From sequence record NC_054911.1: a stretch of DNA of 64,000 nt. One strand, given 5' to 3'. The position numbers and the translations under genes are program-made. Source of the DNA: Escherichia phage ECO4. This document shows, piece after piece, positions 1 through 49,662 of the stretch. Below the pieces are notes generated by a model. The model did not search any database. It was not told where the DNA came from and saw only the letters and a list, made by a program, of their open reading frames with translations. Positions within the stretch are counted from its first letter, which is position 1, and each line of letters starts with the position of its first letter.

Positions 1-1134
1 TAAATCAGCAGCTGATTTACTTTTACTTTCTGGAGATTTAAATTTTTCAACCTTTGAGTTAATCAATTCATCAACTTCAGCTTCAACAATTTCATTACTA
101 TCAATAGCACCTAACTGATAAGCACGTTTAATAGCATCACGGAATGGTTGATGCTTAAATAAAGGACCCCAGAATGTAGTGCAGTTGGTATCTTTTGCGC
201 GCCAAGATTTTTCTTCGCGAATCATCTCACCAGTTTCTTCATCAAGAAATTCACGAGCATACCAACCATTTTTAGGTTTTACCACGAATCCTAATTCTAG
301 AGCCATATCTAACAATCCAGAATAAGGATCGATACCGCCGTCAAATTTAACATCAATAAAGAATTTACTTTTTTCTTTAACGGTACGAGATTTTTCTACA
401 TTTAGAACAAATTGATACCCTTGAAGATCAGAACCATCTTTAATCTGACGTTTACCGATAATAAATACGGTATCAGCCGAATACATTACGCCTGTACCAC
501 CTGTCATCACGGTTTTACTAAACATTTCAATTGTTTCAATTGTATGGTTAACCGCAACACATGGAATATTTTTAATGCTAAAGTAAGGAGTAACAATACG
601 GAATAATGACTTCAGTGATTTAGCACGAGTCATATCTGCCACAGATTTTTCATTCAAGGCATCTTCAGTTTCTTTCTTAGAAGCCATATTACCGATTGAG
701 TCGATGAATACAATAACTTTTTCACCGCGCTCAATAGCTTCAAGCTGATTCACCATATCAATTTTTAGCTGTTCAACTGACTGAATCGGCGTATGAATTA
801 CTCGTTCTGGGTCAACCCCCATGGATCGCAAATAAGCTGGAGTAATACCAAATTCGCTATCATAGAATAGACAAACCGCGTCAGGATATTTGTTCAAATA
901 TGCCGCAACCATAGTCAAAGACATATTTGATTTAAAGTGTTTAGAAGGCCCTGCGAAAATAGTTAAACCAGACTGCATACCGCCATCAATCGCACCAGAA
1001 ATAGCAATATTAAGCATTGGAATTTTTGTACGGATTACATCCTTTTCATTAAAGAATTTAGATGTAGTCAGTTCAGCAGTCATTTTAGAAGTGGAAGCTT
1101 TAATCAAACGGGATTTTAAATCTGCAATAGACAT
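1..1134 (-). CDS. uvsX: UvsX RecA-like recombinase (3' end cut by window edge)
   Basis: Reverse-strand translation starts MSIADLKSRLIKASTSK at 1134 and contains GAIDGGMQSGLTIFAG; matches recalled T4 UvsX; frame open to position 1. Confidence 0.95.
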   Translation of the reverse strand, partial: MSIADLKSRLIKASTSKMTAELTTSKFFNEKDVIRTKIPMLNIAISGAIDGGMQSGLTIFAGPSKHFKSNMSLTMVAAYLNKYPDAVCLFYDSEFGITPAYLRSMGVDPERVIHTPIQSVEQLKIDMVNQLEAIERGEKVIVFIDSIGNMASKKETEDALNEKSVADMTRAKSLKSLFRIVTPYFSIKNIPCVAVNHTIETIEMFSKTVMTGGTGVMYSADTVFIIGKRQIKDGSDLQGYQFVLNVEKSRTVKEKSKFFIDVKFDGGIDPYSGLLDMALELGFVVKPKNGWYAREFLDEETGEMIREEKSWRAKDTNCTTFWGPLFKHQPFRDAIKRAYQLGAIDSNEIVEAEVDELINSKVEKFKSPESKSKSAADL

Positions 1135-1211
1135 TCATTTTTTCCATAGGCATCATTATATTTTCCTCACTGGTTAAAGATAGGGTAATTATAACACAAT
1201 AAATTTAGGCA

Positions 1212-2054
1212 TTAATCAACTGCTATTGGATGAATAGCATTAAACTTATGAAATGCTTCTGATTTTTCTTTACGCGAAACACACATGCGAAGAACCTTTA
1301 ATGGTTCATCTTCTTCACCCAACGATTTTCGTTTTTCAATATTAGAAGTTTTCCAACGAGCTTGCTCTGGAAACTCTCTATTGATTTGCTCAAGCGCTCT
1401 ATTATGTTTAGAATTACTACGAATTGAACTGCACCCGCCAGGAGCTTGTGCTTTTCCGGATACAACCAGATATTTGAACAAGGCCAAATGTGGATAACCT
1501 TGATTAATTAAATTGAGAAATGCATACATATCTTCGCATAAATCAATTTTTCCATACCCAATTTGTTCTGTCGTAAGTTTTCCGAGGTCATACCATGTAT
1601 TCGTGAATCCATATGAATTTTCACGATAATTACCCCAAGATGAAGTAATTTTAAAAATAGGTAGACGAGCATGGCCATGATAATACCCACAATCCATGGC
1701 ATCCTCAACATATTGAATCAATTCATAGAACTGTTCACGAGTTAATTGATTGACTTTATCTACGCAGCGTCGATCATCTCTTTTTCGCATTGAACTCATA
1801 CGAATAGTAGTATCATCGTCAATCATCCAGATTCGTTGACCTGCATACATATCAGTAATTGCTTTACGAGTACCGGCAATTCCGTTTACATCATCAGGAA
1901 TAGTTATAATTTTAGCTTTAGACCCATAGGCATCATAATAAGCTTTTTCTTCATGTTCACGCACTACAATATGGGGTTCATAATCAGTCGGAAACATATC
2001 AAGGGCAGAAACTGCCCCGACACGCTGATAACTTGGAATTACGAATTGAATCAT
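1212..2054 (-). CDS. putative GT-A fold glycosyltransferase at the beta-gt locus (possible HMC-DNA beta-alpha-glucosyltransferase)
   Basis: ORF between uvsX and gene 42; DXD-like motif RIWMIDDDTTI; does not match recalled T4 beta-gt; ATG at 2054 overlaps gene 42 stop (ATGA); track start 2060 is a GTG artefact. Confidence 0.6.
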   Translation of the reverse strand: MIQFVIPSYQRVGAVSALDMFPTDYEPHIVVREHEEKAYYDAYGSKAKIITIPDDVNGIAGTRKAITDMYAGQRIWMIDDDTTIRMSSMRKRDDRRCVDKVNQLTREQFYELIQYVEDAMDCGYYHGHARLPIFKITSSWGNYRENSYGFTNTWYDLGKLTTEQIGYGKIDLCEDMYAFLNLINQGYPHLALFKYLVVSGKAQAPGGCSSIRSNSKHNRALEQINREFPEQARWKTSNIEKRKSLGEEDEPLKVLRMCVSRKEKSEAFHKFNAIHPIAVD

Positions 2055-2791
2055 TTCCACTCACCTTTATAGTCTTTTTTCACAATATGAGTTTCGCCAG
2101 TATTCCACCAATGATCAACCAAGTAAAAATGACGAGAATATACATGAAGACTTCCAACATTCCATATAATAGAACCTGCTTTATACTGACGAGTTGAATC
2201 GCCTGCATTCAAATCAGATACTAATTTATCTAATACGTATTTTTGCCATGCATAATCATTACGGAATCCGAAGACCACGTCATTTGAGCGCATGCTTACT
2301 ACTGCATTGACTTTCTTATCACGAATCAGGTACTGTACTGTATTAGTACACATGAAATCTGACATACCATCTTTATTGTAGTCAAATTGCATAGATGGAC
2401 GAGTATAAATCATGATACCACGTCGAGAATCAGGATTTTGACCAAGTTCAGCTAAACACATATCATACTGAGCATAGTTATCTTCTGACCAGATAGCCCA
2501 ACCATAATTCGAGTTAATTTCACCTTTAGAAGATGCTACTTGTTGCCAAATCTTCGGTGTTTCACCTGGAATATCTTTAACAAACAAGCTTTTAGATTTA
2601 TACCATTCAAGTTCACGCTGAATGTATTCATCATTAAGAGCGCCAAAAATAAACGGTTCATCTGCTACAAATGATGCGCCAATAATTTCAATAGTTTTAA
2701 CACCAGTTTTATCAACTACGAAATCTTTTTCTTTTAATGCAAGCCCCAAATGAAGACGGATTTCTTCAACTGTCATAGAGTCACTAATCAT
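2051..2791 (-). CDS. 42: dCMP hydroxymethylase
   Basis: 246 aa, MISDSMTVEEIRLHLGLALKEKDF..., matches recalled T4 gp42. Confidence 0.95.
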   Translation of the reverse strand: MISDSMTVEEIRLHLGLALKEKDFVVDKTGVKTIEIIGASFVADEPFIFGALNDEYIQRELEWYKSKSLFVKDIPGETPKIWQQVASSKGEINSNYGWAIWSEDNYAQYDMCLAELGQNPDSRRGIMIYTRPSMQFDYNKDGMSDFMCTNTVQYLIRDKKVNAVVSMRSNDVVFGFRNDYAWQKYVLDKLVSDLNAGDSTRQYKAGSIIWNVGSLHVYSRHFYLVDHWWNTGETHIVKKDYKGEWK

Positions 2792-2944
2792 TTAAACCTC
2801 AATTGATACATTCATATTTAACTTGTAACAGTAATAAACTCCAACCTAAAATAATAGTTGGAATCATAAGAGGAACCGTTACACTATAGTATATACTTAT
2901 TATAATCATCAAGATTAAAAGCAATGCTGCTATAATTTTGCTTT

Positions 2945-3196
2945 TCATTCCTTCTCTCTGATGATAATTACCTGATTTGGCTGCGCAGACTTTTTAGTTT
3001 CACCAGCAATTGACCAAATAAATGTAATAAACCAACCAATAATTGACCAGTTAAACAGTAAAGATGTGAAAAAGATTCCTACTGTCGATTTTGACCCACG
3101 CATCAAGGCGATAAACCATGGAAGCATGTATATAATAATAGCCAACACGCCTGAAACTAAAACCATAAAAATTGAACCTGCTACTAAAGTTTCCAT
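2945..3196 (-). CDS. imm: Imm superinfection immunity membrane protein
   Basis: 83 aa, two hydrophobic helices, position after gene 43 and before 42, RBS GAGGAAA. Confidence 0.85.
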   Translation of the reverse strand: METLVAGSIFMVLVSGVLAIIIYMLPWFIALMRGSKSTVGIFFTSLLFNWSIIGWFITFIWSIAGETKKSAQPNQVIIIREKE

Positions 3197-3203
3197 GTTT
3201 TCC

Positions 3204-3584
3204 TCACTTAGTCAAATTTTTTACACATGAATTATAAGAATTCACTACATACTCCATCGGAGCATTTTTACCAGTACGCCATTGGTAATTATTAGCCCAA
3301 TTTGCCCAAAGCATGGCGCAGTAGTTTTCAATTTTTTCTTCGCGTGTAATTACATCTGAATTACGATATGCTTGAGCAGATTCATCTGGACGAATAGCTT
3401 CGTCAAAATTCGCCTGCATTTGTTCTACTGTTTGCTTTGGAGCTTCTTTATAACACTTGATATTAGGATTATAAAATTTGCTTGAACAGTTTACAATTTT
3501 TCCTGCATCAGACTGATTTACTACCGGTCCTTGAGCTACACAACCAGTAAGACCTAATGCAATAACCAAAATAGCGATTTTCAT
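3204..3584 (-). CDS. predicted lipoprotein
   Basis: N-terminal signal peptide MKIAILVIALGLTGC with lipobox LTGC; RBS GAGGAAA. Confidence 0.6.
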   Translation of the reverse strand: MKIAILVIALGLTGCVAQGPVVNQSDAGKIVNCSSKFYNPNIKCYKEAPKQTVEQMQANFDEAIRPDESAQAYRNSDVITREEKIENYCAMLWANWANNYQWRTGKNAPMEYVVNSYNSCVKNLTK

Positions 3585-3594
3585 AATAATTTCC

Positions 3595-3831
3595 TCAAAT
3601 GCAAGTAGTAATTACTCCAGTAGTGCTTATGCAGGTATTACCCATTTGCACACCTAAAGATCCATTTGTATTCACATGAAGATTATCGTCAATTTTAACT
3701 GATATTTTACCATTAGTGTGAATAACGGTGCTAGATTCAATCACAGGTTGAGTATCATTTTCAACACTAACAAATGGAACTGCTGCTAATGCAACTAAAC
3801 AAACTGCTAAGCATCCCATAACAATTTTCAT
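3595..3831 (-). CDS. small exported protein with signal peptide
   Basis: MKIVMGCLAVCLVALAAVPFVSV signal-like N-terminus; ATG at 3831 with GGAG 7 nt upstream; track start 3843 is TTG artefact; directly downstream of early promoter. Confidence 0.5.
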   Translation of the reverse strand: MKIVMGCLAVCLVALAAVPFVSVENDTQPVIESSTVIHTNGKISVKIDDNLHVNTNGSLGVQMGNTCISTTGVITTCI

Positions 3832-3868
3832 TTCATTCTCCAAATCCGTATCAGTAGTTGATAGTTGT

Positions 3869-3898
3869 ATAGTACCATAGAAGAACAGGGATGTAAAC
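3869..3898 (-). promoter_or_regulatory. early (sigma70) promoter, GTTTAC-18nt-TACTAT
   Basis: Minus-strand GTTTAC (3898-3893) and TACTAT (3874-3869), A-rich upstream element. Confidence 0.7.
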
Positions 3899-3980
3899 AG
3901 TTTTGTGAAAAAATTTTTAGGGAATCCAAAGGGTCCAGAATCATCTCTTTTTCATAAGTATAGATTTATATTACTTGTAT

Positions 3981-4003
3981 GAAAAAGGGACCCGGAGGTC
4001 CCT
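3981..4003 (-). terminator. intrinsic terminator after gene 43
   Basis: Hairpin AGGGACC-UCCG-GGUCCCU followed by U-run on minus strand. Confidence 0.6.
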
Positions 4004-4015
4004 AGATTTATTCTA

Positions 4016-6712
4016 TCAGCCAAACAGGAAGTCTAACGAAGCTTTTTCTTCATAGTCCATGCCAGCCGATTCACACATACCCGCAAGCGGTTTAACAAAC
4101 GATTTTTGGAACAAAGTTGAGTAGTCAATCCAAGACAGTACGTCAGAACGAATTTCTTTTGGAAGTTCTGTACCCGACGGCCAAGCAATGCATTTGTCAC
4201 CAAATGGATTTCCTTCACGCAATGGAAGAACCATTACTTTATTTCCATCCAAAATTGGAGCTACACCTAAACCGCTAACAGCTCGACGATAAGTTAGCAC
4301 ACCGCGAATATGGAACGGGCATTTAAATCCTGGCCAACCTTTATCATCATATTTCGCTATATCGTTCGCAGTTTTTACTTCAGCAATAACTTTATAGTCA
4401 AGTTGACGATATTCTTTCTCGAAGTTCTTGTAGTATTCTTGGACAGACTCTTCACCTTCTTGAAGAATACGACGAATACTTTCTTCGAGAGCTTCTTGCA
4501 CTGCTTTTGGTGTTGAACTCTGCTGAGTTTCCATACCCATGATTTTTAGATGCGGTTCAGCAAATCGTTTATCTTCCATATCATAAACGTTCAGAGCATA
4601 ACGCTTTTTCGCTTTCCAAAATCCACCAACACCCTTTGAACCAAGTGGAGGGCAAGAAATAGCTTCACGGTCCATATGCATCAGATGCTCGCGGTTATTC
4701 ATATAATCACATAACTCACGATATGCAACATCAATCATAGGTTCCATCTTTTTCTTACCGAACTGATTCATGAATTCAACTAAATCGTTCTGCTCTTTGA
4801 ATCGGTCAAGACCAACTTTTTCAATAACTTTATCTACACAAACATATACCGAATCAGTATCACCTGCTGCGATGAAATCTTCACCATTAGTTCCGCATAC
4901 TTTATTCAGATATTCATTAATTTTACGAGCAATCCACTGAATACCAACTTGGCCGAAAATTGTGATAGCAGTAGCATTTCGCAAATCATAGTAACGAAAA
5001 TGAATATTACCAAGAGCACCGTAAAGACTGTTAATAAGAATTTTACGGTTCAGCTGATTTGTGTTAGCAAGTGTAGCTGCTTTTTCACATTCTTCAATCA
5101 AACTATTGAGAACAGATTCGGTGTAATTCGATAGTTCATTTAAGAAATCATCACTGAACTTAACATATCGTTCAACTTCAGGTTTAGTTGAACAAGACCC
5201 TGCGCCTTTCATAATAATCTTTTTAATAGCTTCGGCATTCATTTCTTCAGCGAACATTTTCTTTTTCCAATCTTTACGCTGGAAAAATACTTTAGCGATT
5301 TCCTTTGGAATGATACCTTCTTGATGCTTATCATACATCCATCCATTCGGAGAACAAGAATATTCATCACTCGGTTTAGGAGCTGTTCCTGCAATATATT
5401 CATGAATTGGATGAACTTTAAACTGCCCACGAATAGTCTCAGGACTAATGTTAACCTGACGAATAATGCTCGGATACAGAGACGTCAAGTCAAAACTCAT
5501 AATATATCGACGAGCAATTGGTTTAGGTTCAAACACAAATGCACCCGGAAAACTCTGTTTAACGTGCGAACCCTGTTGAGGAATAACCTTATGTTCACCT
5601 TTCAATGAGTTAAAAATAATGGCATCCCAGGTTTTAATAGGACTCATTACACCAGAAAAAGGCATTTTAGCGTAATAAGACATACTTAAAACTAGATCGA
5701 TAAACCCGCGAATTTTATCAATTGCTTGAACTGATTCTACGTCAATGATGTTATAACTAATGTATCGTTGATGATTAGTCTCACGAAGTTTATTAATAGG
5801 ACCGTCGTATGGTAATTTACCTTTTTTGGTTTCATGCTGAGCAACTGATTCCAAAGAGAATGACGGCAAATTAGTAAATGCGAATTTCTTATACAAATCT
5901 AAATAATCAAGAATAGATACGCCATCAATAGAATAAATTTCTTTGCTACCGTACATATTTTGGATAAGTTTAGATTTTACTCGACCGATTGGAGAGAAGC
6001 GTTTCATACTACGTTCACCGAGAACCATTTTAACGCGATTCATGATATACGGAACGTCAAATCCCTCAATATTCCAACCAGTAAAAATAGCAGGTCGTTT
6101 CTGTTCCCAAAGATTAATATATTCCATGAGCATATCACGCTCATTATCGAATGGCATATAAATTACTCGGTCAAGAATTTCTTGAGGAACTTCATCACCA
6201 CCTTCACAGTCAAGCTTAGCAGCTAACTTTGCATCCCATTTTGATACTGAACCATACATTGAATTCAAAAGGTCGAAAACATAAAAACGATCGTCAATTG
6301 AATCATAATGAGTGATAGCATCAATTTCATATTCTGCTTTCATTGGGTCAGGAAATTTATCACCAGTAACCTCAATGTCACAGTTAGCTACACGAACAAA
6401 TTTTCGGTCATAAACAATTTCTGAACCATATGTATCACTGATATAAGCGAGTTTAAAATCGTTCATACCGAGAGCTTCGAGACCGATGTCTTCCATTCTC
6501 TTCATCCAATCTCGAGCATCTTTCATTGATGGAAATTTTTGAGGAGCGCAGTTTTTACCATAGATGTCTTTGTACTTTGACTCTTCCTTACAATGCCTAA
6601 ACATAGTTGGAAGATATTCTACTTCACGAGTACGTTCCTTTCCGTTTTCATCAATATAACGTTCAACAATGTTATTTCCGACTGTTTCGATAGAGATATA
6701 AAATTCTTTCAT
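4016..6712 (-). CDS. 43: DNA polymerase
   Basis: 898 aa, MKEFYISIETVGNNIVERYIDENGKERT..., exonuclease and polymerase motifs (FDIE, YGDTDS); matches recalled T4 gp43. Confidence 0.97.
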   Translation of the reverse strand: MKEFYISIETVGNNIVERYIDENGKERTREVEYLPTMFRHCKEESKYKDIYGKNCAPQKFPSMKDARDWMKRMEDIGLEALGMNDFKLAYISDTYGSEIVYDRKFVRVANCDIEVTGDKFPDPMKAEYEIDAITHYDSIDDRFYVFDLLNSMYGSVSKWDAKLAAKLDCEGGDEVPQEILDRVIYMPFDNERDMLMEYINLWEQKRPAIFTGWNIEGFDVPYIMNRVKMVLGERSMKRFSPIGRVKSKLIQNMYGSKEIYSIDGVSILDYLDLYKKFAFTNLPSFSLESVAQHETKKGKLPYDGPINKLRETNHQRYISYNIIDVESVQAIDKIRGFIDLVLSMSYYAKMPFSGVMSPIKTWDAIIFNSLKGEHKVIPQQGSHVKQSFPGAFVFEPKPIARRYIMSFDLTSLYPSIIRQVNISPETIRGQFKVHPIHEYIAGTAPKPSDEYSCSPNGWMYDKHQEGIIPKEIAKVFFQRKDWKKKMFAEEMNAEAIKKIIMKGAGSCSTKPEVERYVKFSDDFLNELSNYTESVLNSLIEECEKAATLANTNQLNRKILINSLYGALGNIHFRYYDLRNATAITIFGQVGIQWIARKINEYLNKVCGTNGEDFIAAGDTDSVYVCVDKVIEKVGLDRFKEQNDLVEFMNQFGKKKMEPMIDVAYRELCDYMNNREHLMHMDREAISCPPLGSKGVGGFWKAKKRYALNVYDMEDKRFAEPHLKIMGMETQQSSTPKAVQEALEESIRRILQEGEESVQEYYKNFEKEYRQLDYKVIAEVKTANDIAKYDDKGWPGFKCPFHIRGVLTYRRAVSGLGVAPILDGNKVMVLPLREGNPFGDKCIAWPSGTELPKEIRSDVLSWIDYSTLFQKSFVKPLAGMCESAGMDYEEKASLDFLFG

Positions 6713-6750
6713 AGATATTCCTTAGTTTATAGCCCGAGTTATTAGGCTCT
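6713..6750 (-). promoter_or_regulatory. gp43 translational operator (hairpin with AAUAACUC loop plus Shine-Dalgarno)
   Basis: mRNA reads AGAGCCUAAUAACUCGGGCUAUAAACUAAGGAAUAUCUAUG; loop AAUAACUC matches the known gp43 autoregulatory hairpin. Confidence 0.8.
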
Positions 6751-6770
6751 TGATATATTATACTCCAAAT

Positions 6771-6788
6771 AAGGGGCCGAAGCCCCTT
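6771..6788 (-). other. UUCG-tetraloop RNA hairpin (regA-43 intergenic)
   Basis: mRNA AAGGGGC-UUCG-GCCCCUU. Confidence 0.6.
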
Positions 6789-6790
6789 GC

Positions 6791-7159
6791 TTAATTACCA
6801 ATCGTATATTTAGGAACGAGTTTCCATTCATGTTTTTGTTTAAAAGAAATAACTCGGAAGTTATTAGTTAAATCTTTCATAAAAGTTCTTTGACCAGGGA
6901 CGATTTCAATCAGTCCCCAATCTTCTAACAGCCATGCAATCGAATCACGACGAACTTCATCTTCTTCTGTCATTTCAACTTGACGGCCATCCATACGAAG
7001 CATTTCTTTAAAATGAACGATATAGTATAGTCCTTTTTTCTGAAGAATATGACAGGACTGATACAGAACTTTATCTTTATTATTAGCAATTCCCATACGA
7101 GTCAAAGTTTCTTTTACTTTCAGAAAATCTTCAGGTTTTTTAAGAGTAATTTCAATCAT
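6791..7159 (-). CDS. regA: RegA translational repressor
   Basis: 122 aa MIEITLKKPEDFLKVKETLTRMGIANN..., matches recalled T4 RegA. Confidence 0.95.
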   Translation of the reverse strand: MIEITLKKPEDFLKVKETLTRMGIANNKDKVLYQSCHILQKKGLYYIVHFKEMLRMDGRQVEMTEEDEVRRDSIAWLLEDWGLIEIVPGQRTFMKDLTNNFRVISFKQKHEWKLVPKYTIGN

Positions 7160-7160
7160 T

Positions 7161-7724
7161 TTACCATTCCAATGCTAGTTTTTTGAGTTGTTTCTGTTCT
7201 TTTACGTTCTTAGTCACTTCTTTCAAAAAATCATCCGTGACTAATCCTTTAAGTTCTTTTAATACTAAAGGTAGTTTTCCATTTTTAGTAAGAATTGATT
7301 TATAGTTAATTGCATCATTTGTATTAACTTGATAACGCTTAGCAAGTAACTTAATAATCAATACTTCGGTGGAATCTTCAACTAGTTTTGCCCATTTACC
7401 ATATCTTTTACCACGAGGAACTGCAGCCATTAGATAATTAAAATGGGCTTCATCACTTAAGCCTGATCCAATTAAATTCATAGCATATACAGCCGGCATG
7501 CACTCTGGAAATTGTGATAATGCATTTTCAACCATGAATTTTGAATAATCTTTTTGAGCAATAGAGCATTTAGTTTTATTATTAATAGCTCCAATTATTT
7601 CAAAAAACTCATTTTCAGCTTTTTCTTTAAAAGAATCAGCAGCGGATTGGACAGCTGTCCAATCTTTTGAATACCAAGCAACTTGATGCTCGTTTAATTG
7701 AATATCATCTTCAAATAAGCTCAT
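7161..7724 (-). CDS. 62: clamp-loader small subunit
   Basis: 187 aa from [22 protein letters not shown]; ATG 7724 adjacent to gene 44 stop; track start is GTG artefact. Confidence 0.93.
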
Positions 7725-7725
7725 A

Positions 7726-8685
7726 TCACTTCCACTGCATTTCACATGCTAACTGAATGAAAAGATAAGCTAAATGCAATTCAGTATTAGCTGCAATACC
7801 ATGATACTGATTATTTTCACCAACAATTTCATACATACGAATAATACTTTGCGGAGTTACGCGTGTATAGATTTCTTCGGCAAGTTTACCTACGAACCAC
7901 GAATAATCAGCTGCATATTTTGGTGCTAAAGCTCTGAGCTGTTTAACATCTTTATTTTTGAGAGACTCAAGAACATCATCAATAGCACCACGATCGTTAG
8001 TAACCAGTGATAAAATACCAGCATCCAAAACACCTTTAGATGAATAACTATCGAGCTCGCCAATAGTTTTACGAAAATCAGGAAAATTCTTTTTAACCAA
8101 AGCTGCTACAACTTTCATATCAGCTATAGCAATTCCTTCATGCTTGCAGATTTCAGTCAATCGACGAATCATCTGCTTCATCATTTCAATTTTATCTTCA
8201 TCGGTCGGTTGACCGAATGTAATAACTCGGCAGCGTGACTGAAGTGGTTTAATAATACCATCAATATTGTTAGCAGTAATAATAATACTACAGTTTGAAC
8301 TATAAGCTTCCATAAAGGAACGAAGATGTCGCTGAGACTCTGCTAACCCTGAGCGGTCAAATTCATCAATAACGATTACTTTTTGACGACCATCAAATGA
8401 AGCGGCGCTGGCAAAATTAGTCAAAGGACCGCGAACGAAATCAATTTTACAATCTGATCCATTCACAAACATCATATCAGCATTTACATCATGACACAAT
8501 GCTTTTGCTACAGTTGTTTTACCTGTTCCTGGAGAAGGAGAATGAAGAATAATATGTGGAATCTTACCTTTACTTGTAATAGATTTAAAGGTTTCTTTAT
8601 CAAAGGCGGGAAGAATACATTCATCGATAGTAGATGGACGATATTTCTGTTCAAGAATGTGTTCTTTTTCATTTACGGTAATCAT
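7726..8685 (-). CDS. 44: clamp-loader ATPase subunit
   Basis: 319 aa from [17 protein letters not shown]; Walker A GTGKTT, DEFD Walker B; RBS GAGGAAA; track start is TTG artefact. Confidence 0.95.
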
Positions 8686-8717
8686 AATTTCCTCATTCAA
8701 GTTTTAGTGTAAATTAT

Positions 8718-8735
8718 AAAGGGCCGAAGCCCTCT
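8718..8735 (-). other. UUCG-tetraloop RNA hairpin (after gene 45)
   Basis: mRNA AGAGGGC-UUCG-GCCCUUU. Confidence 0.6.
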
Positions 8736-8736
8736 A

Positions 8737-9423
8737 TTAAAAATCGTGGGTAGAATCAGCTTCAAGAGCTACTACATAATTCGCGTGTTCACCTTCAAAT
8801 TTAGCAGCACCTTGTTTACCTTTTGCCCAGAGCAGAAGTTTATAATTTCCTGGTTGCATTTTCATATTTGCCATATTGATAATAAAATTAAATGTATTTT
8901 CACCATCATAATCACCAAGAGTCAAAGAATATTTAACACGGGTCAGAGCAGAATCTTCTACTTTATTAAAACCGTTAATTACGATTTTACCTTCTTTTAC
9001 CGTGATAGCAATTGTATCAATTTGCAGACCACGAGATACACGCAACAGTTGTTGAAGGTCTTCAGCTTTAATTTCAGTAACAACAGATGCTACCGGGAAT
9101 GGAATTGGTTTATTAGGAGCAACTACTGTACTCGGATCGGCTGCTGGCCAAAAAATTGTTGAACGAGCATCAGCAATTTTAATATTACCATCTTCTGACT
9201 GGGAAATTTCTGCATCATCATTAACTAGAGACAGAATACCGAGAAAACCGTTCAAATCGTAAATTGCTACATCAAAATCAATAACGTCAGAAATATTCGC
9301 TTCTGCATAAGTTGTACCATTAACCGCACGAGTCATAATAAATTGACCGGATTTAAGCATAATACCAGAGTTAATAGTAGCGAAATTTTTCAGCAGAGCA
9401 GTAGTATCTTTAGACAGTTTCAT
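8737..9423 (-). CDS. 45: sliding clamp
   Basis: 228 aa MKLSKDTTALLKNFATINSGIML..., matches recalled T4 gp45. Confidence 0.95.
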   Translation of the reverse strand: MKLSKDTTALLKNFATINSGIMLKSGQFIMTRAVNGTTYAEANISDVIDFDVAIYDLNGFLGILSLVNDDAEISQSEDGNIKIADARSTIFWPAADPSTVVAPNKPIPFPVASVVTEIKAEDLQQLLRVSRGLQIDTIAITVKEGKIVINGFNKVEDSALTRVKYSLTLGDYDGENTFNFIINMANMKMQPGNYKLLLWAKGKQGAAKFEGEHANYVVALEADSTHDF

Positions 9424-9452
9424 GTAATTTCCTTCAATTCAAATGAGATTTA

Positions 9453-9477
9453 ATTTTATAACTAATTTAATAAAGCA
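9453..9477 (-). promoter_or_regulatory. MotA-dependent middle promoter for gene 45
   Basis: Minus-strand TGCTTTA MotA box, 12 nt spacer, TAAAAT -10 element. Confidence 0.6.
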
Positions 9478-9478
9478 A

Positions 9479-9868
9479 TTAACGATTAAAATCAGCCGCA
9501 ATTGTTTCCGCAACAATTTGTGCAGCAACAATTAGACGTTCATCTGCATTACCACAATAATCGTCTTCAAGGCGTTCACCACATGAAGTCATAATAAATT
9601 TAGCACCGGCGTTTAGGGATTCTGCAGTATGTTTGCGCATTAGTTCAATCCATTTATCACTCACTTCGCGATCGATGGCTTCATAATACGCATGGCGAGC
9701 AGGTGCAGATTTAATTTTGCTCTGAATAACTTCCATTGCGTTATCAGAAAGAGACAAAACCCATGCTCGACGAATTTTATTTTGGTTTTGTGGATTTGAT
9801 TCAGAACGCACGTGTTTTGGCTGAATATCTTTTACATCAACAGTATAATTCACAGTAATTTTAGTCAT
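9479..9868 (-). CDS. rpbA: RNA polymerase-binding protein RpbA
   Basis: 129 aa ORF immediately upstream of gene 45, as in T4. Confidence 0.8.
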
Positions 9869-9877
9869 AATACACCT

Positions 9878-10066
9878 TTAGTCATAATAATCAGTAACAG
9901 TCCAAGCTTCATTTCTATTGGACATTATTTTTGTATATTCTGCTTTAAATGCATTCCTAAGCATAGATTCAGTAACTATATGCTCTTCATTAGAAAAATT
10001 ATTTCTCAGAATATATCGTTTTATTTCAGGAAAAGTTAATAAATGCTGTCCAGTTGAATATTCCAT
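9878..10066 (-). CDS. 45.2: hypothetical protein (45.2 position)
   Basis: 62 aa ORF, RBS GGAGGAA, downstream of MotA-type middle promoter. Confidence 0.6.
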   Translation of the reverse strand: MEYSTGQHLLTFPEIKRYILRNNFSNEEHIVTESMLRNAFKAEYTKIMSNRNEAWTVTDYYD

Positions 10067-10083
10067 GTTTTTCCTCCATAGAG

Positions 10084-10109
10084 ATTATACTCTAATAAAT
10101 TAAAGCATA
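10084..10109 (-). promoter_or_regulatory. MotA-dependent middle promoter upstream of 45.2
   Basis: Minus-strand TATGCTTTA MotA box, about 12 nt spacer, TATAAT. Confidence 0.6.
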
Positions 10110-10121
10110 ATCTCTTATAAA

Positions 10122-11804
10122 TTAAACCATTACAGTAAATCGACCAACTTTCTTCATTTGAAGATGCTGACCATATTCTTGCGGGTCATGGTCTTTATGC
10201 GAAATTATAAAAACATTAGTGTTTTTCATTGAATTTATAATATTAGCTACACCTTTAATACCTTCGGCATCAAATGACCCATCAAACACTTCATCAAGAA
10301 TTAATGTATTAATACTAACACCAGATACGATAGAAGCAATATCACGCCAAGTAAATAAAAGAGCAATATCAATTCGTGCCTTTTCACCTTCACTAAATGA
10401 AGCATAACTAAAATCTTCACGACCACGGGATTTAATTGTCTCATTAAATTCTTCATCTAATGTAAACACATAATCCGCTTCCATTATTTTAAGATAATGG
10501 TTAATCTGCTTATTAAATAATGGAATGTACTTTTTAATAATAGCACCTTTAATACCAGAATCTTTGAGCATATCAGTCAAAATTCCTCGGTGGTATTTTT
10601 CCATTACTAAATTAGTTTTTGTCTTAACAATTTTATCAAGTTCTTCTTGAAGCAATGCTATTTCATCAGCATGGTCAATAAACTCGGATGATGCTTTTTC
10701 TATAGCTGCTTTAACTTTTTTAGCTTTATCTACTGTCGTGATTAGAGATTGCTTTTTATTGCGAATATCATTTGCCAACGACTGCTGGGTTTTAATATTA
10801 TCTCGGTATTCATCAACAAGAACTTTTAAATTATCACGGTGCGTTGAAAGCTGTTCAAACGAATGCGTACATTCAGAAACTTTATCTTTAATTTTAGAAA
10901 CAACTTTATCACCGGAACTTAATTGTGACAAACAGGTTGGACATAATCCACCTTCGTGATACATATTAATGACTTTATTATACGAGTCAATTTTTGATTT
11001 AATTAAAAATGCTTCTTGACCGATTTTATTAAATGCATCAGTCGGGTCTTCATCCAAAACAATATTAACTAATCTTTCATTAGCTTCTTCTATTTCCGAT
11101 TTTAACGTTCTAGCTTCTTTTGCCAAATCATCATACATATTTTGCAGACGAGTAAGGTTGTCACCCGTTAATTTTTTCTGGCGTTCAACGTTATCATTAT
11201 ATATTTTAATTTGTTGGATAATACTATCTTTTTTAACATCAAGCACTTGGTTTTGTGAATTTAATTCACGTATTAGTGCTTTATTAAGCTTATCCATTTC
11301 AGCTAATGTTCCTACCTCAAGCAGGTCTTCCACAAGCTTTCTTCGCGCAGGGGTCGACAAACCCATGAAAGGGGTATACCCTGCTGTACCAAGGACAACA
11401 ATCTGCTTGAAACTGGCATATGACATTCCGATAAGCTGTTCAAATTCTGCTTGGAAATCTTTACTGCTGGCAGATTCATTAAGACGTGTACCGTTAACGG
11501 TGATTTCGAAAACGTTTGGTTTTTGTCCTCTTTTGATATAGTACTTTTTCTCATCATATTCCATCCACAGTTCAACTAAAAGTTCTTTCTTATTTGTGCT
11601 GTTTATTAATTGACCTTTCTTTACATCACGGAATGGCTTGCCAAAAAGCCCAAATGTGATGGCTTCTAACATAGTAGACTTACCACCGCCATTTCGGCCA
11701 GTAATAAGAGTTTTTTGAACCTTATCTAATTGAATGTCAATAGGATTTCCACCTACTGACATTATATTTTGATACCTAACTCGGTTTAGTTTAAAATTCT
11801 TCAC
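10122..11804 (-). CDS. 46: recombination nuclease ATPase subunit (Rad50/SbcC-like)
   Basis: 560 aa; Walker A GRNGGGKST, coiled-coil middle, signature/Walker B LILDEVFDGSFD; GTG start overlapping upstream stop. Confidence 0.93.
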   Translation of the reverse strand: MKNFKLNRVRYQNIMSVGGNPIDIQLDKVQKTLITGRNGGGKSTMLEAITFGLFGKPFRDVKKGQLINSTNKKELLVELWMEYDEKKYYIKRGQKPNVFEITVNGTRLNESASSKDFQAEFEQLIGMSYASFKQIVVLGTAGYTPFMGLSTPARRKLVEDLLEVGTLAEMDKLNKALIRELNSQNQVLDVKKDSIIQQIKIYNDNVERQKKLTGDNLTRLQNMYDDLAKEARTLKSEIEEANERLVNIVLDEDPTDAFNKIGQEAFLIKSKIDSYNKVINMYHEGGLCPTCLSQLSSGDKVVSKIKDKVSECTHSFEQLSTHRDNLKVLVDEYRDNIKTQQSLANDIRNKKQSLITTVDKAKKVKAAIEKASSEFIDHADEIALLQEELDKIVKTKTNLVMEKYHRGILTDMLKDSGIKGAIIKKYIPLFNKQINHYLKIMEADYVFTLDEEFNETIKSRGREDFSYASFSEGEKARIDIALLFTWRDIASIVSGVSINTLILDEVFDGSFDAEGIKGVANIINSMKNTNVFIISHKDHDPQEYGQHLQMKKVGRFTVMV

Positions 11805-12064
11805 AAAAGATTCCTTTTAATGTATCTTTTAGACCATTCTATCATATCATCATAATCTAAAAAGTATTCATCAAATTCAGCCATGCAAACAACGCCTTGT
11901 GCTGTTTTTGATGTAATATAAATTATTCCAACATATCTAGAATCTTCTTCGGTATAATCAATGTTTGCTATGAATTCATCATTAATGTCAAATGTCGAAA
12001 ACTTCACAGTATGCATCCTTAATACAAGATACGGCCATATCTCGCAATGATTTAGGTGTGTCAT
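11801..12064 (-). CDS. hypothetical protein (46.1 position)
   Basis: ORF between 46.2 and 46; start uncertain (overlaps 46.2 if full length). Confidence 0.4.
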   Translation of the reverse strand: MTHLNHCEIWPYLVLRMHTVKFSTFDINDEFIANIDYTEEDSRYVGIIYITSKTAQGVVCMAEFDEYFLDYDDMIEWSKRYIKRNLL

Positions 12065-12251
12065 TATCTAAAATGTTGAAGTTAAAAGATACAGCCCAGT
12101 CAGTGCAGACCGTGACCTTTTTAATACAATTATCTTCAACCTCTAGCGGTTCAAACCAATATTCAATAATTTCTTTATGCCCAATATCATCTTTTACTTC
12201 GCATTCAAAATGCTGACTCATCATAACATTTTTAAATTCATCAAAAGTCAT
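11988..12251 (-). CDS. hypothetical protein (46.2 position)
   Basis: 87 aa ORF directly downstream of gene 47. Confidence 0.5.
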   Translation of the reverse strand: MTFDEFKNVMMSQHFECEVKDDIGHKEIIEYWFEPLEVEDNCIKKVTVCTDWAVSFNFNILDNDTPKSLRDMAVSCIKDAYCEVFDI

Positions 12252-13267
12252 TGTGTTGCCTCTACATATAACTGATTTGCATATTGAATAAGTGCTTCAC
12301 GGTCAGAATCAGTGATGTCTGGAATTGCATTAATGTATTCTTCCATCAACGTCTGAAGAGATTGAACTTCAACTTCTTCACTGTCATCTGACTCGACAGA
12401 GTTATCAATCTTTGACACAACTCGTAATGAATGCACAACTTTTTCTAGTTCAGATTCGAACTTCGTTAGATTTTTGTCTACTTCAGTTACTATAACACGT
12501 ACTGATAGATTTGTAAAATCTTTATAGTCAATTTTTCCTTTAAATGGATAATGAATTCTACGATGCCAGGTAGTGTTGTTTGGAATAAATTCCATTCGTT
12601 CTGTTTCTGTATCAAACATCCAGAACCCACGAGGGTCATTCTCGTCACCTGCAGTTAGTGTCCATGGTGTCCCAATATATCTGACGTTAGCAGCCTCAGA
12701 GATAGTATGGAAGTGACCAGACCACACCTCTTTATAAGTCTTAAGGAAATCAGGTTCAAGACCGTGAGATTTCATTCCTTTATAAAAATAAAATCCATTC
12801 AGTTCCCAGTGACCAACACAAAAAGAAGCAGATGAAGTTTTGATGTGCTCAAGAATTTCACCAGTATTTTCTTCGCACATCCAAGGAATTAAATCAATCA
12901 AACATCCGTCAAAATCTACTGTAGTAGGCTTATCATATACTTTAACATTAGGATATTTAGCCAAAAGCTCAGTAGAGGCATTTGGATGCATTACATTTTT
13001 GTAGTGGAGATCGTGATTTCCTACAATAGTATGTAATGTGATTCCAGCGTCATCAAGCATTTGAACTATTTCACGGGCAAACTCCATAGTTTTATGTGTG
13101 ATTGCTTTTCGCACATCAAAAATATCACCATATTGAATCCATACAGTAATTCCATTTTTCTTAGAATATTCTATCGCTTGCTTAATTCCATCAATTTGAA
13201 TACCGCGAATCCACTCATCATCAGCTTTAACGCCTAAATGCCAATCACCCAAGTTTAGTATTTTCAT
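12248..13267 (-). CDS. 47: recombination nuclease subunit (Mre11/SbcD-like phosphoesterase)
   Basis: 339 aa; phosphoesterase motifs GDWH, GDIFD, GNHD; matches recalled T4 gp47. Confidence 0.93.
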   Translation of the reverse strand: MKILNLGDWHLGVKADDEWIRGIQIDGIKQAIEYSKKNGITVWIQYGDIFDVRKAITHKTMEFAREIVQMLDDAGITLHTIVGNHDLHYKNVMHPNASTELLAKYPNVKVYDKPTTVDFDGCLIDLIPWMCEENTGEILEHIKTSSASFCVGHWELNGFYFYKGMKSHGLEPDFLKTYKEVWSGHFHTISEAANVRYIGTPWTLTAGDENDPRGFWMFDTETERMEFIPNNTTWHRRIHYPFKGKIDYKDFTNLSVRVIVTEVDKNLTKFESELEKVVHSLRVVSKIDNSVESDDSEEVEVQSLQTLMEEYINAIPDITDSDREALIQYANQLYVEATQ

Positions 13268-13868
13268 GGTGTCTTTTCCATCCTAATTTAGCTGCTTTTG
13301 AAACCAGTTCTTTAATTTTTCCTTTTGTCCATTCAGGACCAGGAGGTTCATGACATAACATTTGCTTAACTCCGTTATTATACCATTTTTTACCTTTATT
13401 ATGTGATGAAGCTTTAAATTTATTTGACCTTCCTTTTACATAACCTTCTGGAATATAAGGCAAAAAGGCAGATTTTCCTGTTAATGGATCATGTGAATGT
13501 ATATTTCCTTTACAATTATGAGAACCATATAATGGATGATTTTGTCCTTTATTATCTCTTCCAAATGAACCTTTTGGAGCAGCATATGACATATTAAAGA
13601 ATAATGGATTTTTAACTGCATCATGCAATCGTTGATAATATAACTCGCATTTAATAGCTTCTTCACGCGTATCAAATTCAGCTAAAATGCATGAATCAAA
13701 TAAGTGAGGATTATCTGAAAGCTCTTTATTATAAATTTTCTTATACTTTTTAGATAAAACTGAACCATGATATCCAGCTAAATGCCTATCTAAAGACGTA
13801 GATCCAATATAAAAAGGAGGAAGTTTATCTCCACTATATATTGTTAAATAAGTTATATATTTTTTCAT
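13245..13868 (-). CDS. putative GIY-YIG-like homing endonuclease
   Basis: N-terminus KKYITYLTIYSGDKLPPFYIGSTSLDRH resembles GIY-(10-12 aa)-YIG; basic C-terminal region with NHPLYG/HS repeats resembling Seg-type DNA-binding modules; overlaps gene 47 start. Confidence 0.5.
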   Translation of the reverse strand: MKKYITYLTIYSGDKLPPFYIGSTSLDRHLAGYHGSVLSKKYKKIYNKELSDNPHLFDSCILAEFDTREEAIKCELYYQRLHDAVKNPLFFNMSYAAPKGSFGRDNKGQNHPLYGSHNCKGNIHSHDPLTGKSAFLPYIPEGYVKGRSNKFKASSHNKGKKWYNNGVKQMLCHEPPGPEWTKGKIKELVSKAAKLGWKRHHENTKLG

Positions 13869-14028
13869 ATATCAAGAACCGTCATTGAAATGCAAAATAA
13901 AATTATTGAAATAAACCCATCTGGTGTGCTAAAGAAACCAATCCAGCATGCTCTAGTGAATAGATAAAATGCAAGAAAAAGTATCACATATCCAAGAAAT
14001 ATCATTATATCAAACTCCGTATAAAGCT

Positions 14029-14046
14029 AAAGGGCCGAAGCCCTTT
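14029..14046 (-). other. UUCG-tetraloop RNA hairpin at a-gt stop codon
   Basis: mRNA AAAGGGC-UUCG-GCCCUUU. Confidence 0.6.
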
Positions 14047-15247
14047 ATTTTGTAATAATGTCAAACTGTTCTTTAAAGCAGAAGCTTGAATCTTGATGCT
14101 GATACAAAAATTCATATGCTTTTTCTCGCTCACGGTCATAAAGAGCTCGGTCAGATGACAGTTCTTTAATACGTTCAAACGTTGATTCCATATCATTTTC
14201 ATCAAACCAAATGATACCGCTATCATGCGAGGTCAAAGGAGTATTATCAACACGGAATTTTAAATTTTCGCCAGTAGATTTCCAAAATACCGGAATTGTT
14301 CCACATGCACCAAGCTCGAGATGAGTATATTCTAAAGAACGTTGTAGATATTTTTTATCCAACTTACTCAGCTGATAACCAAATCCGGATTTACTCATGC
14401 GTTCAAGCATTTCGCTATTTACATAACGGTCAAGAATTTGCGTTGGCAAATTAGGAGCAATTTTAATTTGGTCTACTTGATGAAGACGATAATACTCGTA
14501 TGGAATTCCTTTTTCTTTAATAGGAATGAACGCTGGAGAACGTTCCAGACCTTCCATAATAGTACTTAGTCCTGCAGGTTTAAGATGTTTTTCATGAAAA
14601 TCAAACATCTGATAAAAACCTTTCCATGTAGTCGTACGACCAATCCAACGGTTGATATTCATGTTAATTTCAGAAACATCTTTCCAGTAGGTTGATCTAA
14701 CCTTCGCAATATCCATAGGAGGCTGAAAGTTATATACTGTCGGTGCTTCTTCAATATCATCAAACAGAGAAACTGTTTCAGGATACCATTCTTTCATCAG
14801 AACTTTATTAAAATCACCATTATCAGAATGGCTAAAAATAACATCAGCTCGACGAACAGTTTCTTCTAATCCCAAATTTCGACGCAAAGAAAGAGAAGAA
14901 TGGTCATGTTGATAAACTACAACACGAACAGAAGGTTTAATGTTATCAATAATTTTTTTATAGTTATTAATAGTGTCTTCTTCAACCGAAGTAGCAGGAA
15001 CTGAATTAATAATTAGAATATCACAATCATTTACCAGCTTAAGTGTTTTATCATATTCTTTTGCCAATAAAACCGGAATTGAAAATGATTTATAATCATG
15101 CGCGCAATTACGAGTAAATGATTTATCTTTAGCATAAACCAAAGTTACTTCATGACCATTTTTAATAAACCAATCACGCTGCTCAAGAGAAAATTTAGTT
15201 ACACCGCAACCTTCAAGACCCCGAGCCAGAAAAATGCATACTTTCAT
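14045..15247 (-). CDS. a-gt: alpha-glucosyltransferase (HMC-DNA)
   Basis: 400 aa MKVCIFLARGLEGCGVTKFSLEQRDWFIKNGHEV..., matches recalled T4 alpha-gt. Confidence 0.93.
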   Translation of the reverse strand: MKVCIFLARGLEGCGVTKFSLEQRDWFIKNGHEVTLVYAKDKSFTRNCAHDYKSFSIPVLLAKEYDKTLKLVNDCDILIINSVPATSVEEDTINNYKKIIDNIKPSVRVVVYQHDHSSLSLRRNLGLEETVRRADVIFSHSDNGDFNKVLMKEWYPETVSLFDDIEEAPTVYNFQPPMDIAKVRSTYWKDVSEINMNINRWIGRTTTWKGFYQMFDFHEKHLKPAGLSTIMEGLERSPAFIPIKEKGIPYEYYRLHQVDQIKIAPNLPTQILDRYVNSEMLERMSKSGFGYQLSKLDKKYLQRSLEYTHLELGACGTIPVFWKSTGENLKFRVDNTPLTSHDSGIIWFDENDMESTFERIKELSSDRALYDREREKAYEFLYQHQDSSFCFKEQFDIITK

Positions 15248-15297
15248 TTAATATCCTCATTGTTTTGGTTTATTTTACCAAAAATTTATAAAGCAAT

Positions 15298-15980: not shown

Positions 15981-15981
15981 A

Positions 15982-17301: not shown

Positions 17302-17303
17302 AA

Positions 17304-19590: not shown

Positions 19591-20061
19591 TTAATCATGT
19601 TTCCACACCCCATCGGTATTTGACCAAAGTCGCTGATTATCTGATCCTCGCCACAGCTTTTTGGTCGGAAGATTTTTCTCATACTTCCCATCAATAATAA
19701 CATCAACATATTTAAGCATTTCTAGTTGTTTAATATCTTCAAACTTATATCCTGTCCACAACCAAATGCTTTTATTGGGATAAAGATTTTTAACTGTTTG
19801 AACGATGCAATGAATCACGTCTCTGTTATCAGGATAAAGAGGGTCACCTCCGGTTATAGTTAATCCTTCTATATAATCATTATTCAAACATTCAATTAAT
19901 TGTTCTAGTGTTTCACCAGTGAATGGAATACCATTTCTAGCATTCCATGTTGATTTATTATAACACCCTTCGCATTTATGCAAACAACCTGTAACGAAAA
20001 GAACGACCCTGCATCCAGGGCCATTAACAAAGCAGCACGGGTATATTCTGTCATAATTCAT
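19591..20061 (-). CDS. nrdG: anaerobic ribonucleotide reductase activase (radical SAM)
   Basis: MNYDRIYPCCFVNGPGCRVVLFVTGCLHKCEGC cysteine cluster; ATG 20061 overlaps upstream stop (ATGA); track start is TTG artefact. Confidence 0.9.
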   Translation of the reverse strand: MNYDRIYPCCFVNGPGCRVVLFVTGCLHKCEGCYNKSTWNARNGIPFTGETLEQLIECLNNDYIEGLTITGGDPLYPDNRDVIHCIVQTVKNLYPNKSIWLWTGYKFEDIKQLEMLKYVDVIIDGKYEKNLPTKKLWRGSDNQRLWSNTDGVWKHD

Positions 20062-20888
20062 AATAATATCCAATTTTTCCAAGCTTCATCAGTAGAATTA
20101 CAGCGTTTTAGTATAAGATGTCTAGAAACTTTTATGGCATTTGAGCACTTTTTAATTGAATCATATTTAATACCGTCAACTGAAACGGTTTTGCTAATTG
20201 GAGAAATTTTTCCATACATTGGATTTTTTGAACCAACTTGAAGTCCTTTTAAAGCTTTTGAAAGCTTTTGTCTAGATTCCAATGACATGGGAGAATTCTT
20301 TTTACCTTCAATAATTCGCTTGCGATGAAGTTCGCGTTCTTCTTCACTCAAAGAATTGTAATATTTTTTAACACCGTTTGATATAGATAATTTATCTTTC
20401 TCAGACCGCTCTCCAGCTAATTTACTTCTAACATCTTTTCGCTTCATAGCTATGCTTACGGCTTTATTTAAATTTGCTTGATGCTCTGGCGTACGTTTAT
20501 ATTTCTTTAAAGCACGTGAAATAGCTATTTTAGTTTCTTCTGTTCTCTTTTTACCTTTATTTGCTAAACTATTTTTGCGGCGATGTTCAAGTGTCTGTTC
20601 ATAGGCAGTTCCACCTTTTCCACCAGGTTTAATATTATATGTATTTTCTTTTAGACAATACTCTTCGGTTACAAGTTCAGCTTCTTTATCATACATCTGT
20701 TTTTCATTATCAAAAACATGTAAAATTTCTTTATTAAAATTTTTTCTACCATATTTTAATAAAGCGGCACGAATCAATGTTCCTGACCCCATATAACCGT
20801 CATTTATGTTATCGGTGCTATGCGCACCGATATATTCCTTTGAATTAATTATATTTGTTATTTTATAAATTATATAATACCTATGCAT
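20058..20888 (-). CDS. GIY-YIG family homing endonuclease (free-standing)
   Basis: N-terminus YYIIYKITNIINSKEYIGAHS = GIY-(10 aa)-YIG; lysine-rich C-terminal DNA-binding-like region; inserted between nrdD stop and nrdG start with overlaps at both ends. Confidence 0.75.
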   Translation of the reverse strand: MHRYYIIYKITNIINSKEYIGAHSTDNINDGYMGSGTLIRAALLKYGRKNFNKEILHVFDNEKQMYDKEAELVTEEYCLKENTYNIKPGGKGGTAYEQTLEHRRKNSLANKGKKRTEETKIAISRALKKYKRTPEHQANLNKAVSIAMKRKDVRSKLAGERSEKDKLSISNGVKKYYNSLSEEERELHRKRIIEGKKNSPMSLESRQKLSKALKGLQVGSKNPMYGKISPISKTVSVDGIKYDSIKKCSNAIKVSRHLILKRCNSTDEAWKNWILL

Positions 20889-48834: not shown

Positions 48835-48910
48835 TGGTCGAGGCAGTAGGGATCGAACCTACGACCCAGGACTTAGAAGGTCCTTGCTCTTCCTTCTGAG
48901 CTATGCCTCG
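48835..48910 (-). tRNA. tRNA-Arg (anticodon UCU), CCA encoded
   Basis: Manual cloverleaf: acceptor CGAGGCA/TGCCTCG, anticodon loop CTTCTAA, T-loop TTCGATC. Confidence 0.8.
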
Positions 48911-48914
48911 TATT

Positions 48915-48989
48915 TGGCGGACGTGATAGGATTCGAACCTATAACCAATCACTTAACAGGCGATCGCTCTGCCATTGAGCTACACATCC
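48915..48989 (-). tRNA. tRNA-Asn (anticodon GUU), CCA encoded
   Basis: Manual cloverleaf: acceptor GGATGTG/CACGTCC, D-stem GCTC/GAGC, anticodon loop CTGTTAA, T-loop TTCGAAT. Confidence 0.75.
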
Positions 48990-48993
48990 AAAT

Positions 48994-49080
48994 TGGTGGG
49001 GAGTGATGGAGTCGAACCACCCGAGTCGCAATGACAATGGATTTACAGTCCACACCGCTACCTCTACGGGATAACTCCCC
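48994..49080 (-). tRNA. tRNA-Tyr (anticodon GUA), class II with long variable arm, CCA encoded
   Basis: Manual fold: acceptor GGGGAGT/ACTCCCC, anticodon loop CTGTAAA, long variable arm, T-loop TTCGACT. Confidence 0.7.
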
Positions 49081-49089
49081 AAATTAATT

Positions 49090-49164
49090 TGGTGGCCCTG
49101 GGTGGAATTGAACCACCATCTGGCGATTATGAGTCGCTTGCTTGAACCTTCCAGCTACAGGGCC
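49090..49164 (-). tRNA. tRNA with CAU anticodon (Ile2 or Met), CCA encoded
   Basis: Acceptor GGCCCTG/CAGGGCC, anticodon loop CTCATAA, T-loop TTCAATT; position of tRNA-Ile in T4. Confidence 0.75.
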
Positions 49165-49165
49165 T

Positions 49166-49241
49166 TGGTGCTGATTGACGGAATCGAACCGCCGACCTTC
49201 TCATTACAAGTGAGTTGCTCTACCTACTGAGCTAAATCAGC
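49166..49241 (-). tRNA. tRNA-Thr (anticodon UGU), CCA encoded
   Basis: Acceptor GCTGATT/AATCAGC, anticodon loop CTTGTAA, T-loop TTCGATT. Confidence 0.8.
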
Positions 49242-49246
49242 AAAAC

Positions 49247-49336
49247 TGGCGGAGGCGATAGGATTTGAACCTATGAGTCGCCGGAGCGACTGCCGGTTTT
49301 CAAGACCGGTGCATTAAACCACTCTGCCACGCCTCC
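49247..49336 (-). tRNA. tRNA-Ser (anticodon UGA), class II
   Basis: Acceptor GGAGGCG/CGCCTCC, anticodon stem CCGGT/ACCGG with loop CTTGAAA, long variable arm. Confidence 0.8.
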
Positions 49337-49338
49337 AG

Positions 49339-49412
49339 TCTCCGCGGCAGGATTTGAACCTACGACATTCTGCTCCCAAAGCAGACGCTCTACCAAACTG
49401 AGCTACACGGAG
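49339..49412 (-). tRNA. tRNA-Pro (anticodon UGG), CCA not encoded
   Basis: Acceptor CTCCGTG/CGCGGAG (C1-G72), anticodon loop TTTGGGA, T-loop TTCAAAT. Confidence 0.8.
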
Positions 49413-49422
49413 TAAATTAAAT

Positions 49423-49496
<74 letters not shown>

Positions 49497-49501
49497 AAAT
49501 T

Positions 49502-49588
49502 TGGTGCGAGAAGTGGGACTCGAACCCACAAGGAAATCATTCCGCAGCATTTTAAGTGCTGTGCCTTTACCAATTTGACCATTCTCGC
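49502..49588 (-). tRNA. tRNA-Leu (anticodon UAA), class II, CCA encoded
   Basis: Acceptor GCGAGAA/TTCTCGC, anticodon stem CAGCA/TGCTG loop CTTAAAA, long variable arm. Confidence 0.8.
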
Positions 49589-49589
49589 G

Positions 49590-49662
49590 CTGGGAATAAA
49601 GGACTCGAACCTTTGCATCCTGGAATCAAAATCCAGTGCCTTACCAACTTGGCTAATTCCCA
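49590..49662 (-). tRNA. tRNA-Gln (anticodon UUG), CCA not encoded
   Basis: Acceptor TGGGAAT/ATTCCCA, anticodon stem CTGGA/TCCAG loop TTTTGAT, T-loop TTCGAGT. Confidence 0.8.

Follow-up and report, generated by a model that had tools for sequence, protein, structure and literature searches.

The window, that is, the whole 64,000-nucleotide stretch of Escherichia phage ECO4 (NC_054911.1) that was analyzed, is assigned by sequence to a Tequatrovirus over its entire length. In a DNA comparison, G4507 was the best match to positions 1–20000, with a value of 98.1%. Near the left edge of the window, a reading frame of 280 aa (ba-gt) lies between uvsX and gene 42, as the initial annotation had described, and both neighbors are clearly recognizable by their identity to T4 (Table 1).

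Table 1 Genes and other features of the window, with positions counted from its first nucleotide.
Feature	Position	Strand	Product or role	Evidence and remarks
uvsX	1..1134	minus	flanking landmark	tblastn of T4 UvsX, 90% identity over 376 aa; annotation of a relative; 3′ part cut by the left window edge
ba-gt	1212..2054	minus	β-glucosyl-HMC-α-glucosyltransferase (aliases TAGT and ggt)	280 aa; DDD at residues 79–81
gene 42	2051..2791	minus	dCMP hydroxymethylase, source of the hm-dCMP precursor	97% identical to T4 gp42; PF00303
49-aa ORF	2799..2948	minus	probable small membrane protein	strongly hydrophobic (MKSKIIAALLLILMIIISIYYSV...); occupies the space that separates gene 42 from imm
82-aa ORF	3595..3843	minus		signal-peptide-like N-terminus; between imm.1 and gene 43
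seg-like ORF	13245..13868	minus	GIY-YIG homing endonuclease-like	between gene 47 and 47.1/a-gt
a-gt	14045..15247	minus	DNA α-glucosyltransferase, maker of the α-glucosyl-hmC acceptor for ba-gt	400 aa; PF11440; comparison with T4 α-gt
seg-like ORF	20058..20888	minus	GIY-YIG homing endonuclease-like	between nrdG and nrdD (genes for the small and large subunits of anaerobic ribonucleotide reductase)
tRNA cluster	48835..49662	minus	10 tRNAs: Arg, Asn, Tyr, Met(CAT), Thr, Ser, Pro, Gly, Leu, Gln	

The ba-gt frame is intact and reads from an ATG at position 2054 to a stop codon ending at 1212 (843 nt). According to the ORF listing, an in-frame GTG at 2060 would give a product of 282 aa; the ATG is the start annotated in T2, G4507 and Some alike. 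Read from the sequence, the start of ba-gt and the stop of gene 42 overlap in the tetranucleotide ATGA, an arrangement compatible with translational coupling of ba-gt to the enzyme for the hydroxymethylated precursor. Between uvsX and gene 42, T4 carries segA and β-gt (351 aa). In a scan of positions 900–4100, the count of promoter-like sites was not above that in shuffled sequences (18 versus 14.1 ± 3.5), and terminator-like sites were modestly above it (5 versus 1.5 ± 1.3). Rfam and tRNA scans revealed nothing connected with the ba-gt locus.

Several other features of the window differ in their annotation among related phages. The 49-aa frame probably represents a genuine gene for a small membrane protein: it is open in T4 with 0 nucleotide differences (6228–6377 of the T4 locus compared, minus strand), in Some with 3 differences, in T2 and T6 with 12–14 differences, and in G4507, where one codon is lost in-frame. 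It carries no annotation in the T4 RefSeq, T2 and T6 records compared. The 82-aa frame had no Pfam match; the G4507 and Some records call it hypothetical, the T2 record gives it the wrong name ‘tail tape measure protein’, and no gene is annotated at this place in T4 and T6. The seg-like frame next to 47.1/a-gt is absent from the equivalent place in T4, narrowly missed the Pfam cut-off for GIY-YIG and is named ‘HNH endonuclease’ in RefSeq G4507, and the one between nrdG and nrdD shares 49% identity with T4 SegA over 115 aa. The T4 genes segA (beside β-gt) and mobB (beside a-gt) are absent here. In the tRNA cluster, the Tyr gene was barely over the Rfam threshold (30.2 versus 29 bits). T4 has eight tRNA genes and is not known to have any for Asn or Tyr.

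Based on profile and protein comparisons, the ba-gt frame was matched by PHROG 842 (β-glucosyl-HMC-α-glucosyltransferase) over residues 1–275 with an E value of 5.6e-89 in the PHROGs search. The Pfam family PF20691 (TAGT, TET-associated glycosyltransferase), whose definition rests on association with genes for DNA base modification, scored 38.9 bits, above its gathering cut-off of 27.5, and the match comprised the whole domain (residues 3–207 for profile positions 2–205 of 205). The Pfam GT2 models gave no match to the frame. A comparison with the T2/T6 βα-glucosyltransferase returned 99% identity over 280 aa for the proteins of both T2 (AP018813) and T6 (AP018814), which are encoded at the same genome position, and the G4507 RefSeq record applies the name β-glucosyl-HMC-α-glucosyltransferase to exactly this frame. 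These data support the earlier proposal of a T2/T6-style enzyme.

Names for these genes are inconsistent across database records. The ba-gt frame also appears as ‘hypothetical protein’, ‘putative beta-glucosyltransferase’ or ‘glycosyltransferase like family 2’, and the RB55 and RB59 records give the name ‘beta-glucosyl-HMC-alpha-glucosyl-transferase’ to a true T4-type b-gt. ‘Thymidylate synthase’ is a frequent name for gene 42, and the T2/T6 AP0188xx records contain clearly wrong transferred names, e.g. ‘major capsid protein’ for gp41.

The statement in the initial annotation that the frame does not resemble T4 β-gt was borne out, as BLASTP between the two proteins detected no similarity (best E 2.2) and PF09198, the T4-type β-gt family, had no match in the frame. 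The presence of a T4 β-gt elsewhere in the 64-kb window (of a roughly 168-kb genome) was rejected, since tblastn with the T4 protein gave no match at E ≤ 10. The same T4 tblastn recovered uvsX, 42, imm and imm.1 at 90–99% identity.

A PDB sequence search with ba-gt found no solved relative (best E 1.5, an unrelated protein), so that the fold was assigned from a predicted model. A search of a large protein database yielded 11 homologues, and an AlphaFold2 model was built from a shallow alignment of 10 sequences. The model was of moderate confidence (mean pLDDT 70.5, pTM 0.72), with pLDDT values of 85–95 in the N-terminal nucleotide-binding half and below 50 for residues 126–151, 194–211 and 261–280. 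For ba-gt, it predicts one Rossmann-like nucleotide-sugar-binding domain with GT-A topology, in line with the glycosyltransferase fold expected beforehand, and an independent published AF3 model agrees with this assignment. According to this predicted structure, ba-gt is a GT-A-fold, GT2-like enzyme. In the literature, the T6 TAGT is likewise described as GT-A and as sister to GT2, and both T2 and T6 possess α-GT and TAGT (PMC13216743). The DXD-like motif pointed out in the initial annotation, RIWMIDDDTTI, was located at residues 74–84. Within it, D79, D80 and D81 are invariant in the alignment of 10 homologues, down to 32% identity, and in the model they follow the strand formed by residues 74–77, as would a DXD-type motif at the end of strand β4. 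The enzyme presumably uses a metal ion through this motif.

Next to the enzyme itself, we considered how common the arrangement is among phages. By tblastn, homologues of the frame were detected in 687 of 50,697 phage records and are mostly annotated as β-glucosyl-HMC-α-glucosyltransferase. The protein is present at an identity of at least 95% in 470 records, and about 200 more, from Klebsiella, Enterobacter and Citrobacter T4-like phages, carry it at 60–80%. In comparison, T4-type β-gt at an identity of at least 90% was found in 29 records, almost exclusively T4 itself and phages very close to it. The 13 phages nearest to the window among the matches listed were all missing from the best 45 of the 126 records holding a β-gt. 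A published survey likewise found the pair of α-GT and β-GT in 6 of 753 genomes, with α-GT plus TAGT as the norm (PMC13216743). On these grounds, it is T4 that is exceptional and the window that is ordinary: ba-gt is the usual occupant of this slot in T4-like coliphages. Hence, the view of a different glycosyltransferase at the β-gt locus stands insofar as the gene is not β-gt, but its framing as an unusual replacement does not, given 470 versus 29 records. The gene, its product, fold and distribution have already been described (PMC11078745, PMC13216743, PMC13390438).

In one subgroup of E. coli Tequatroviruses, β-GT and TAGT occur together: a β-gt homologue of 55% identity is immediately adjacent to a TAGT ~96% identical to that of the window, for example in OR539218 (KMB26, 23132–25047), MK327936 and MZ234034. 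Which acceptor TAGT uses in such phages has also been posed as a question elsewhere (PMC13216743).

The a-gt gene, claimed earlier to be intact and T4-like, is indeed full length; its product shares 91% identity with T4 α-gt in an ungapped alignment, is recognized by PF11440 with an E value of 1.8e-237 and shows one substitution (L7M) relative to Some and G4507. The identity of ba-gt, its intactness, synteny, fold class and motif conservation, and its α-gt partner were all established in the present analysis. In the proposed pathway, gp42 would supply hm-dCMP, such that replicated DNA would contain 5-hydroxymethylcytosine (hmC), and α-gt would move glucose from UDP-glucose onto hmC in an α linkage. 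By analogy with its orthologues, ba-gt would then move a second glucose from UDP-glucose onto the α-glucose in a β-1,6 linkage, yielding α-gentiobiosyl-hmC.

For the chemistry and the defense phenotypes we draw on the literature on these orthologues. Deletion of ba-gt in T6 abolished gentiobiosyl-hmC, leaving only α-glucosyl-hmC, and increased the sensitivity of the phage to Brig1, a glycosylase (PMC11078745). By HPLC/MS, Tequatroviruses with α-GT and TAGT and no β-GT contain 5-hmdC, α-glucosyl-mdC and α-gentiobiosyl-mdC, and no β-glucosyl-mdC (PMC13390438). In the same study, the DNA of phage vB_Eco_Some consisted of ~1/3 5-hmdC and ~2/3 α-gentiobiosyl-mdC with a trace of α-glucosyl-mdC and no β-glucosyl form (PMC13390438). 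Some is 97.6% identical in DNA to positions 1–20000 of the window, and its TAGT and α-gt are 3 residues and 1 residue away, respectively, from those of the window. Because this close relative was measured as T6-like, a T6-like pattern is expected here as well: most likely, a fraction of the hmC would be bare and most of it gentiobiosylated, with little α-monoglucosyl-hmC and no β-monoglucosyl-hmC, the quantitative pattern being carried over from the relatives. Taken as a whole, the data are best explained by a T2/T6-type ba-gt that would add a second glucose onto α-glucosyl-hmC, with T6-like DNA as the likely outcome, and we hold this explanation with high confidence. The gentiobiosyl reading of the initial annotation and its relevance to host defense thereby gain support by way of published orthologue data (PMC11078745, PMC13216743, PMC13390438).

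The same enzyme might instead act as in T2, with a few per cent of the sites modified and DNA containing mainly α-monoglucosyl-hmC and little gentiobiose. Gentiobiosyl-hmC amounts to 5% in T2 and 72% in T6 (PMC11078745, PMC13390438), yet the two enzymes are 99% identical, and hence sequence alone does not predict the ratio of mono- to diglucosylation. The T2 protein is 3 substitutions away from that of the window, and the Durham phages EL, BGP and Geo, which have the same gene set, show an intermediate ratio of 1:2:2 (PMC13390438). However, Some, the measured phage among the close relatives listed, is T6-like (PMC13390438), its α-gt differs by a single residue, and at both T2-specific positions (H11 and S251) the window carries the residues of T6 and Some (R11 and P251). 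We therefore regard a T2-like outcome as unlikely, although a minority chance is left to it. The residue K46 is unique to the window among the ba-gt proteins compared; at this column, the consensus residue of the family is Lys. That this variant (K46, R11, P251), together with the α-gt variant, produces a pattern unseen in T2, T6 and the Durham phages is very doubtful; such a pattern could be, for example, near-complete gentiobiosylation that leaves no hmC bare, or a switch to another sugar donor. If it were true, a comparison of natural variants might explain the difference between 5% and 72% in T2 and T6.

Alternatively, ba-gt could be a functional analogue of T4 β-gt, glucosylating directly, in a β linkage, the bare hmC at sites left by α-gt. 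The frame occupies the β-gt position, the model predicts an inverting, β-forming GT2-like enzyme, and some records bear the ‘putative beta-glucosyltransferase’ label. T2 and T6 classically keep about 25% unglucosylated hmC, which counts against such an activity. Moreover, Tequatroviruses with this gene set lack β-glucosyl-hmC while ~1/3 of their hmC is bare (PMC13390438), and it was specifically gentiobiose that was lost in T6 Δba-gt (PMC11078745). Based on these published LC-MS and deletion data, action on bare hmC was rejected as highly improbable. It is scarcely credible that the enzyme serves a non-DNA acceptor (for instance, a glycan of the host envelope or a protein of the phage) with its adjacency to gene 42 being incidental: the structural neighbors of the model are mostly polysaccharide or teichoic-acid GT2 enzymes, but T6 genetics tie ba-gt to DNA gentiobiosylation (PMC11078745), its Pfam family is defined by DNA base modification, and the overlap with gene 42 would fit translational coupling.

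T6 is the classic example of a gentiobiosyl phage, yet its two public genome records each contain a different apparent lesion in ba-gt. In AP018814 (4135–4974 of the locus compared), one Asp codon is missing from the invariant DDD79–81, and in MH550421 (2138–2980 of the locus compared), CAG is changed to TAG at codon 10 and the gene is annotated from Met20. The stocks might not be the same, or the gene might tolerate change or lose function in the laboratory.

With a T2/T6-type ba-gt, the gene would predict the type of phage DNA, namely hmC and α-gentiobiosyl-hmC with a trace of α-glucosyl-hmC and no β-glucosyl-hmC. Published work shows that the modification pattern governs sensitivity to modification-dependent defenses (PMC11078745, PMC13216743, PMC13390438): α-glucosyl-hmC is attacked by Brig1, glucosylated and gentiobiosylated DNA is cut by GmrSD and BrxU, and the remaining bare hmC is usable by Brig3 and McrBC-type systems. 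The use of the result lies in phage annotation and in host-range prediction when choosing phages, rather than in new biology.

Among known systems, the cellular inverting GT2 enzymes (TarP, TarS, AvpGT and the catalytic domain of cellulose synthase) are only 7–16% identical to ba-gt, and their acceptor is a polysaccharide or lipid-linked glycan, in contrast to a sugar on DNA. GT2-like enzymes invert, converting an α-linked donor into a β product. T4 β-glucosyltransferase (b-gt, CAZy GT63, PF09198) occupies the same genome slot, and both it and ba-gt, as is known for the two families, use UDP-glucose as donor and form a β-glucoside on modified phage DNA (see also PMC13216743). The two enzymes differ in length (351 versus 280 aa), in acceptor (bare hmC versus α-glucosyl-hmC) and in fold, which is GT-B in T4 β-gt (PMC13216743) and GT-A in the model predicted here for ba-gt. 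The T6 protein (AP018814) is 4 substitutions away from that of the window, plus the lesion of the record itself. The T2 ba-gt has the same length (280 aa), the DDD motif and an α-gt partner, its gene likewise lies between uvsX and gene 42, and it differs from the enzyme of the window by three substitutions (R11H, K46R and P251S).
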